From: Candidatus Saccharimonadota bacterium
GTDB taxonomy: Bacteria > Patescibacteriota > Saccharimonadia > Saccharimonadales > SZUA-47
Assembly (NCBI GenBank): GCA_016700315.1
Contig: CP065013.1
Span: 193,449 to 257,448 of the forward strand
DNA length: 64,000 nt
Direction: 5' to 3'
Part shown: positions 19,979 through 20,788 of the stretch, piece after piece
Layout: each line of letters starts with the position of its first letter
Position numbering within the stretch: the first letter of the stretch is position 1
Made by a program: the position numbers and the translations under genes
Notes under the pieces: model-generated
Databases searched by the model: none
Seen by the model: only the letters and a program-made list of their open reading frames with translations
What the model was told of the DNA's origin: nothing

Positions 19979-20788
19979 ATTGCAATCTGGTAATTACAGT
20001 TGCTCCCCACGTAGCATGCGCGTCTAACGCACTACGCGAGTCTTCATGTTTTTTATTGCTCAAATCTGTTCTACTCCTTCAACAGTCAAGTGCTTTTTGG
20101 TTCTTACTAGTTCTGCCGCTAAGCAAAATTTTTCAAAACTATAAAGCTTCTTGGCTCTCGGAGGATACTTTTTAAAGAATGGAATTATCTTACCATCAAT
20201 ATCTTGGAAGTTACTGACCTTGTACTTAACATGAGGCCGCCATTTGGCGTAACGCTCATAATCAAGGCGGTAAATATTACCGCAGTTCAATACTTCTTTG
20301 ATTTGATGCAAAATTTCTTCATCATCCTCGCGAAGTTCGATTTCAAAAATCAATCTCACTTCAGGTAATCTTGGTCCGTTTCGATTGATAGTAATGCTAA
20401 AGCATCCCTCTCCATCAACAAAACCAACGATGTAATTTGGATCCAACATGAAGTTCGTCCCTTTCCTCTATTATATCACAATAACAGAGGTACTACGGAC
20501 TCAGCTGACTTCCTTATGCTATCCGCCAACTGGCGGAAAAATCACAATTTCACATAAGGATCTCCTTGGGTTACGCTGGAAAACTGTTTCAAACATTCCT
20601 TGCTAGGCTTTTCTAATCGGCCTCTTCTCTTGTGTACACATTGCAAGATCGAAGCGCCTTTTGTATTGCAAAGACTGCTTTTTGTATATAGAGCCCTTCA
20701 GACATTCTGTTACCAGAGATGTCCTGCTCGCAACTACTAGAGTGGATTTACACCACTTAGCTTTCCGCGCTGCCAAGCGCATTTATTT
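19979..20788 (-). mobile_element. intervening sequence in 16S rRNA encoding a homing endonuclease
   Basis: It splits the universal block GTACA | CACCGCCCGTCA. Boundaries are within about 3 nt. Confidence 0.7.
20060..20449 (-). CDS. LAGLIDADG homing endonuclease (single-motif type)
   Basis: 129 aa with the motif IVGFVDGEGCFSI, located inside the 16S insertion. Confidence 0.85.
   Translation of the reverse strand: MLDPNYIVGFVDGEGCFSITINRNGPRLPEVRLIFEIELREDDEEILHQIKEVLNCGNIYRLDYERYAKWRPHVKYKVSNFQDIDGKIIPFFKKYPPRAKKLYSFEKFCLAAELVRTKKHLTVEGVEQI

Follow-up and report, generated by a model that had tools for sequence, protein, structure and literature searches.

The 16S ribosomal RNA (rRNA) gene of a Candidatus Saccharimonadota bacterium (contig CP065013.1, assembly GCA_016700315.1) is interrupted by an 810-nucleotide (nt) insert, which we analysed within a 64,000-nt stretch of that contig (positions 193,449 to 257,448; this whole stretch is hereafter the window). 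Its closest described relatives are the S1396, or rns-1396, introns, for which Liu et al. (2026) report that the backbone is of group IIC, that domain IV contains a single-motif endonuclease gene and that every member has a 5' terminal linker, with intron-binding sites IBS1 plus IBS3 and no exon-binding site 2 (EBS2) (PMC13190283). Papers that cite Salman et al. (2012, PNAS) credit that study with the type member, from Thiomargarita. In bacteria of the candidate phyla radiation (CPR), Tsurumaki et al. (2024) counted 53 group II-like 16S inserts, exclusively at a site designated 16IS9 ("position 1400"); 39 of the 53 carried LAGLIDADG genes and none a reverse transcriptase (PMC11270868). Among the Saccharibacteria of the same survey, 64 of 66 inserts were short, with no intron or endonuclease gene (PMC11270868). 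A preliminary description of the insert had noted that endonuclease-bearing 16S insertions occur in CPR bacteria, and that context holds.

Group II introns with displaced 5' splice sites are also known. In fungal mitochondrial rRNA genes, the 5' splice site sits 1-33 nt upstream of GUGYG, a relocated IBS1-EBS1 pairing sets that site and EBS2 is absent; many of these introns carry LAGLIDADG ORFs (PMC4424553, PMC4024640, as summarised there from Toor and Zimmerly 2002, Li et al. 2011 and Mullineux et al. 2010). Similarly, C.te.I1 of Clostridium tetani (McNeil and Zimmerly 2014) has its 5' splice site 8 nt upstream of GUGYG (PMC4024640).

With high confidence, we identify the insert as a group II intron of the S1396 / rns-1396 family that has a ribozyme probably of the IIC type and carries a single-motif LAGLIDADG gene in the loop of domain IV. 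As a member of a published family, it is already known and ordinary; its odd-looking ends are normal for the class, and the type has been described at this exact site. Table S4 of Liu et al. lists CP065013 as "Candidatus Saccharimonadota bacterium" (PMC13190283), and the tabulated 5' exon ACGUUCCCGGGUCUUGUACA, EBS1 AAUGUGUACA and 3' exon CACCGC are, all three, the strings found in the window.

The insert and its junctions

The interrupted gene lies on the minus strand, scores 1350.8 bits against the Rfam bacterial small subunit (SSU) model RF00177 in a scan of the window, and is the only 16S gene within these 64 kb. A regional Rfam scan splits the SSU model in two, with the break exactly at model position 1387/1388: positions 1276-1387 end at window 20789 (...CUUGUACA; longer, ...CCCGGGUCUUGUACA), and positions 1388-1520 resume at window 19978 (CACCGCCCGUCA...; longer, CACCGCCCGUCAAGCC...). 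The insert is therefore exactly 19979-20788, 810 nt, and the gene is partitioned as follows.

20789..22170, minus strand: 16S rRNA 5' exon, by RF00177; ends ...CUUGUACA (A1396)
19979..20788, minus strand: complete group II intron, 810 nt, from the SSU split, junction bases and covariation
19846..19978, minus strand: 16S rRNA 3' exon; starts CACCGCCCGUCA (C1397 = IBS3); 3' end approximate

Within the 3' exon, RF00177 positions 1388-1520 align to 19978..19858, and the anti-Shine-Dalgarno sequence CCUCCUUUCU lies further on. The insert begins with AAAUAAAUGCGC and ends with GCAAU. It falls between A1396 and C1397 of the Escherichia coli 16S rRNA, in a numbering set by the landmarks C1400, G1401 and A1408 and consistent with the published site name. 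The universal block can be restored by this join alone, since U precedes CACC and A follows GUACA. The preliminary description had given these same boundaries and this sole restoring join, had placed the site at about 1396/1397 in the decoding centre, and had noted a 5' exon ending in A and an insert ending in GCAAU; the break in the SSU model and the bases read at the junctions bear it out on each count.

Related loci were retrieved through the endonuclease protein from species-representative genomes and metagenomes. Homologous inserts occupy the same 16S junction in at least 28 public loci, so the feature is not due to chance. All of these inserts open with six A/U-rich nucleotides and then (A)UGCG or (A)GGCG, and their last bases before CACCGCC are AAU or GAU. 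The nearest (L161, from the independent assembly GCA_029781765.1) has a 1382-nt 5' exon 100% identical to that of the window, and the two precursors of 2321 nt differ at 9 positions, of which 8 are in the intron and one is in the 3' exon. By comparison, the window 16S gene is 89% identical to that of a Saccharimonadales metagenome-assembled genome (L001).

Ribozyme architecture and covariation

The preliminary description had pointed to group I and group II covariance models as a means of classifying the insert. The sole intron family that Rfam found in it is RF01998 (group-II-D1D4-1), at 20539..20458 on the rRNA strand with 41.3 bits against a cut-off of 35, whereas the group I model RF00028 had no match in 19800-20900 at E <= 10, and RF00029, the model for group II domains V-VI, had none in the window. 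Of 20 related loci scanned, 11 likewise have an RF01998 match above the cut-off. RF00029 scores 32.7-36.4 bits in five relatives (L004, L007, L008, L009 and L011; cut-off 40), each match finishing on the final intron base, and a local search of L011 returned 36.4 bits (E = 2.5e-6) across the full model.

Sequence and covariation show that the insert folds into the six domains of a group II ribozyme, with the following features.

20778..20782, minus strand: 5' motif AUGCG, counterpart of GUGYG; alignment A2 shows no variation at its G, C and G
20565..20777, minus strand: domain I, 213 nt; basal stem CUUGG/CCAAG; RNAalifold consensus and pair counts
20628..20648, minus strand: EBS1 hairpin; covarying stem, with the loop UGUAC at 20634-20638 complementary to IBS1
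20507..20564, minus strand: domain II hairpin; core 20511-20560 and two outer GA/UC pairs; part of the RF01998 match
20501..20506, minus strand: J2/3 linker AGCUGA, invariant in the subfamily; gamma is the A at 20506
20457..20500, minus strand: domain III; helices 13-14; RF01998 match 20539..20458
20042..20453, minus strand: domain IV; basal stem CUUCAUGU (20453-20446) with ACAUGAAG (20049-20042)
20006..20040, minus strand: domain V; minimum free energy (MFE) fold and covariation; the homologue of these columns in L011 matches RF00029
19982..20003, minus strand: domain VI; MFE fold; an A bulges at 19986, at a distance of 8 nt from the 3' splice site
19979..19981, minus strand: 3' terminus AAU (= AY), whose last U is gamma'

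Covariation, which is seen in every helix, was measured on 25 distinct homologous intron sequences from the same site, with the 3' partners of each helix slid by 1-3 columns as the control. For the 5' part, RNAalifold returned a multi-branched domain I, a hairpin for domain II, the J2/3 linker and domain III, with compensatory changes in 55 of the 76 predicted pairs. Together with the EBS1-IBS1 pairing, domains I-III are paired in 94.9% of 2011 cells (32-48% when slid), and 56 of 81 pairs are compensatory; none of 500 shuffles reached any of five measures. The window copy keeps 78 of these 81 consensus pairs. The AUGCG motif stands directly 5' of the domain I basal stem. In domain I, pairing amounts to 82-100% in helices 2-11, apart from the one pair of helix 9 (70.8%), and compensatory changes occur at most of the pairs. 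Helix 12 of domain II is 96% paired, with five compensatory pairs, and helices 13-14 of domain III are 94-98% paired, with compensatory changes in seven of nine pairs.

The basal stem of domain IV encloses the open reading frame (ORF) and its AUG. All 8 of its positions pair in the window; among the 25 sequences, the first three positions are always paired and pairing declines further along, while positions 0-3 switch type (C-G/U-A, U-A/C-G).

The last 62 nt of the intron form two hairpins in the MFE fold, domain V and domain VI, separated by a short linker. Domain V comprises a lower helix of 10 bp, a 2-nt bulge AU on the 3' strand (20017-20016), an upper helix of 4 bp and a loop of 5 nt, with a CGC triad (C-G, G-U, C-G) at 20038-20036; among the 25 sequences it is 99.1% paired, with five compensatory pairs. 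In domain VI, all seven pairs show compensatory changes. Over the two domains, 97.8% of cells are paired (31-49% when slid), and 12 of 21 pairs are compensatory. An A occupies position -8 in 25 of 28 family members, and -8 or -9 in 26 of 28. A clean single-nucleotide A bulge at -8 appears in 14 of the 28 MFE folds, the window included; we report the base at -8 rather than the bulge count because adjacent A residues or weak A-U pairs made the other folds ambiguous. All 25 aligned relatives share the terminal AU.

A CGC triad is typical of IIC introns. With the small domain I (213 nt), it gives a partial indication of that class; the IIC assignment itself, probable for the window intron, is taken from the published family (PMC13190283).

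Several features weigh against the group II classification or sit uneasily with it. RF00029 gave no match to the window domains V-VI, including in a search confined to 101 nt. The apical loop of domain V, GUUAGAC, is not of the GNRA type, and its bulge is AU where most relatives have AC. At the 5' end, there is no GUGYG at the splice site, and the first base of the corresponding motif is A rather than G. We attribute the RF00029 result to the variant apical loop, because the homologous segment of L011 scores 36.4 bits; the window domains V-VI align column for column with those of the relatives that the model recognises.

The apical part of domain V (window 20020-20032; columns 34-46 of alignment A1) exists as two loop types in the family. 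RF00029 recognises the GGGAAAUCC-like type and does not recognise the G(Y)UAGA(Y)(R)C type, to which the window belongs. The loop types correlate with sequence differences at A2 columns about 205-210 and 313-315, within domain I, which could reflect a matching loop-receptor change.

The architecture also bears on whether the insert is spliced at all. Intervening sequences that fragment the molecule are known in bacterial rRNA genes, and many CPR rRNA inserts are unclassified (PMC11270868); the insert might be excised by RNase III or some other nuclease and the ends left unjoined, or be removed by archaeal-type bulge-helix-bulge excision, leaving a fragmented 16S rRNA. However, the site lies in the single-stranded decoding-centre strand and not at a helix tip, the insert ends form no long stem of the intervening-sequence kind, and under fragmentation the conserved ribozyme architecture would be purposeless. 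We consider this explanation highly improbable; no search aimed at a bulge-helix-bulge motif was made, since the covarying group II structure takes up all of the non-coding part.

Splice sites and the 5' terminal linker

Two tertiary pairings specific to group II introns define the ends of the insert. The elements at the 5' end are as follows.

20789..20793, minus strand: IBS1, GUACA, 16S positions 1392-1396, where the 5' exon ends (5 nt); paired with the EBS1 loop in 25 of 25 sequences
20783..20788, minus strand: 5' terminal linker AAAUAA, running from the 5' splice site up to the GUGYG-like motif

The UGUAC-GUACA pairing is present in 100% of cells and includes one compensatory pair: two loci (L010, L096) combine the exon GCACA with the loop UGUGU, so that U-A becomes C-G. 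EBS1 likewise follows the exon in introns located after A1398, where the combinations are ACACA/UGUGU (L105, L139) and ACUCA with UGAG or UGGGU (L019, L023, L101, L102). The 5-bp pairing places the scissile bond after A1396, 6 nt upstream of AUGCG, and because the 5' splice site thus falls at the exon-linker boundary, AAAUAA belongs to the intron. At the other end, a gamma A (GUC-A-GC) accompanies introns ending in U and a gamma U (GUC-U-GC or GUC-U-GA) those ending in A, an agreement that holds at 24 of 24 loci from five lineages. Since both pairings covary, both splice sites are fixed. The EBS3 of Liu et al., "AGA", recurs at several offsets in the stretch immediately 3' of the EBS1 hairpin, so that its placement is ambiguous.

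All 25 aligned homologues have a linker of 6 nt, in which positions 1, 4 and 6 do not vary (A1, U4 and A6). A sister lineage at this site has 5-8 nt, and a lineage inserted after C1397 has no linker. A mutual-information scan of the linker against all columns of A2 and A1 found no Watson-Crick partner for it, the correlations being phylogeny-like only. Such 5' linkers are already documented in the S1396 family and in group II introns of mitochondrial rRNA genes (PMC13190283, PMC4424553, PMC4024640). The preliminary description had raised the prospect of an atypical splicing or excision mechanism; the mechanism would be a known one, as the element is a group II intron, of the other classical self-splicing class, whose 3' AY and bulged A are canonical. 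The 5' end alone is non-canonical, in having six nucleotides before AUGCG.

It had also allowed that its boundaries might be shifted. In the form of a group I intron, this would place the true splice sites a few bases away, with a U before the 5' site and a terminal G on the intron. LAGLIDADG genes do reside mostly in group I introns, and such introns occur elsewhere in related 16S genes (RF00028, 57.4 bits, in L013). Yet the SSU model permits no displacement of the junction, the exon ends in A and the intron in U, and the region 19800-20900 contains no Intron_gpI (RF00028) match at E <= 10, in keeping with the original impression that the junctions are not group I-like. Moreover, covarying group II domains account for the whole insert, and EBS1-IBS1 with gamma-gamma' fix both of its ends. 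The shifted boundaries are thus refuted by the SSU split, the EBS1-IBS1 pairing and the gamma-gamma' covariation, and a group I identity, its probability close to nil, is effectively refuted.

Homologous endonucleases and ribozymes also occur 1-2 nt downstream, after C1397 (L015, L016, L020, L104) and after A1398 (L018, L019, L023, L101, L102, L105, L139); L017 is also among the downstream-shifted copies. In these shifted introns, the EBS1 loop and gamma are re-tuned to the new junction. Published surveys merge the adjacent insertion sites as "position 1400".

The endonuclease gene

The reading frame in domain IV is as follows.

20060..20449, minus strand: LAGLIDADG homing endonuclease ORF, 129 amino acids, single motif; Pfam LAGLIDADG_1, E = 1.8e-23

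The Pfam match agrees with the LAGLIDADG assignment of the preliminary description. The AUG sits in the 5' strand of the domain IV stem. The protein collection contains 640 homologues, of which the best 120 listed are all at least 70% identical. Against enzymes of the I-OnuI family with solved structures, the 129-residue protein aligns full-length to each half (E 2e-37 to 1e-25). Those enzymes (I-PanMI, I-OnuI, I-SmaMI) are two-motif monomers of about 300 amino acids, whereas the window protein has a single motif and would therefore be expected to act as a homodimer. Liu et al. group the rns-1396 endonuclease with those associated with fungal group II introns (PMC13190283), a placement with which the full-length I-OnuI-family alignment agrees.

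One observation bears on the activity of the enzyme in this strain. The ORF is 12 codons shorter than that of its nearest relative, owing to a TGA at 20062-20060 that is CGA in L161, and since it stops early, endonuclease activity in the window strain is not assured. The lost tail overlaps domain IV and V RNA and lies outside the Pfam domain.

Combined with a 5' end that is non-canonical, with the variant loop and AU bulge of domain V, and with the failure of RF00029 to match the window domains V-VI, the premature TGA might suggest that the insert is a decaying group II remnant unable to self-splice, which would be removed by host factors or would mark a non-functional gene copy. The ribozyme itself does not have the appearance of a remnant: beyond the consensus pairs noted above, the window copy retains every pair of domains V and VI along with the CGC triad, and it has kept the bulged A as well as EBS1 and gamma. 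The domain V loop in question is found in 14 of 25 relatives, which makes it a lineage trait and not damage. In addition, the exons still score as SSU rRNA and are nearly identical to those of L161, with the intron differing at 8 sites, and the window holds no other 16S copy. Decay is accordingly improbable, though less so than the fragmentation or group I explanations.

Proposed splicing and mobility

By analogy with known group II introns, domain V, with its CGC triad and 2-nt bulge, would form the metal-ion active site, and two phosphotransfer steps would excise the intron and ligate GUACA to CACCGCC, thereby restoring the 16S decoding-centre strand. The 3' splice site itself, as sequence and covariation show, lies after AU, 8 nt past the bulged adenosine of domain VI, and is tied to J2/3 through gamma-gamma'.

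For the first step, we lean towards branching from the domain VI adenosine onto the first A of the linker; hydrolysis falls a little short of an even prospect. Precedent speaks for hydrolysis: tested introns with shifted 5' splice sites splice only in this way (PMC4024640), and IIC introns generally yield no branched product in vitro (PMC4748821). We nevertheless favour branching because the hydrolytic precedents have lost the branch adenosine, whereas the present family keeps an A at -8 or -9 and a covarying domain VI. It is conceivable, if doubtful, that the family, which keeps both its conserved linker and its bulged adenosine, is a natural exception to the association of a 5' extension with loss of branching in mitochondrial rRNA introns and C.te.I1, a lariat forming on the first linker A rather than on the canonical G and the linker serving a structural role of its own.

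No reverse transcriptase is present, and the intron would spread at the DNA level. A homodimeric endonuclease would cut intron-less 16S rDNA near position 1396, and repair would copy the intron in. The occurrence of an intron devoid of reverse transcriptase after 1396, 1397 and 1398, with EBS1 and gamma re-tuned, hints at RNA-level retargeting by reverse splicing beside homing.

Hosts and genomic context

The same intron at the same site appears in records titled "uncultured Gammaproteobacteria", "uncultured archaeon" and "Elusimicrobia" (L004, L007, L009, L011, L010, L017; labels as deposited). Several related loci have a second intron, of group I, further 3' in their 16S gene: RF00028 scores 57.4 bits at L013:2103-2341 and falls below its cut-off at L002:904-1193, L007:2110-2346, L015:1093-1824 and L019:1839-2116. 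The window 16S gene is without this second (group I) intron.

Between the 16S and 23S genes, tRNA-Ala and tRNA-Ile (19051-19124 and 19206-19279, plus strand) are encoded on the opposite strand, adjoined by an ORF of 62 amino acids (19437-19625, minus strand). The 16S-23S distance of about 1.4 kb indicates that this is not a classical co-transcribed spacer. The same inverted tRNA genes lie downstream of the 16S gene in the Saccharimonadales locus L001. The 23S rRNA gene (15293-18408, minus strand) measures 3116 nt against a 2925-nt model, with inserted stretches of about 40-75 nt towards the 5' end, around 18040-18120 and 17975-18055; the Rfam alignment shown contains no intron-sized insert in the window 23S gene.

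Implications

Two points concern annotation. Toor and Zimmerly reportedly warned in 2002 against taking a LAGLIDADG ORF to imply a group I intron, and the present finding shows that such an ORF in an rRNA gene should not be read in that way. Likewise, a 5' end without GUGYG does not exclude a group II intron.

The intron splits the "universal" 16S primer site at about 1391-1406 and adds 0.8 kb. With the primer site divided and the gene lengthened, carriers are missed or under-counted in amplicon surveys, a point already made in the cited work for giant sulfur and CPR bacteria. The residual interest of the locus resides in the joint conservation of the linker and the branch adenosine, and in re-tuned copies at three adjacent nucleotides.

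Comparison with known systems

Like the window intron, C.te.I1 is a bacterial group II intron with an upstream 5' splice site, which an altered EBS1-IBS1 pairing specifies; it has lost EBS2. It differs in being a class B derivative that resides in a protein-coding gene and lacks an endonuclease gene. The branch site in its domain VI is disrupted, its splicing in vitro proceeds by hydrolysis, and it serves in alternative splicing.

The fungal mitochondrial IIB1 introns resemble the window intron as rRNA group II ribozymes in which a LAGLIDADG gene replaces the reverse transcriptase. They are unlike it in their IIB1 backbone and organellar setting, and many carry the ORF in domain III. They are also without the domain VI branch adenosine, and the one tested splices by hydrolysis only, whereas the window family keeps the A.

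The 16IS9 inserts of CPR bacteria share with the window the region of the gene, matches to Rfam group II models, a LAGLIDADG_1 ORF and the absence of a reverse transcriptase. Given the preponderance of short inserts among the Saccharibacteria of that survey, the window host belongs to a minority. The survey did not resolve the exact junction, linker, EBS1 or gamma.

Finally, the S1396 introns of Thiomargarita namibiensis and other Thiotrichaceae have the same insertion point after A1396, the IBS1 GUACA and an EBS1 containing UGUAC, and, like the window intron, they carry a single-motif endonuclease gene in domain IV and a 5' terminal linker. The Thiomargarita EBS1 UGUGUGUACC and the EBS1 of the window have UGUGUAC in common, the two ribozymes being compared by their EBS1 strings only. 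The hosts differ: the type hosts of S1396 are giant sulfur bacteria, and the window host is a CPR (Saccharimonadia-like) bacterium. While the main text of Liu et al. confines the family to Thiotrichaceae (PMC13190283), our searches find it to be common in CPR assemblies.

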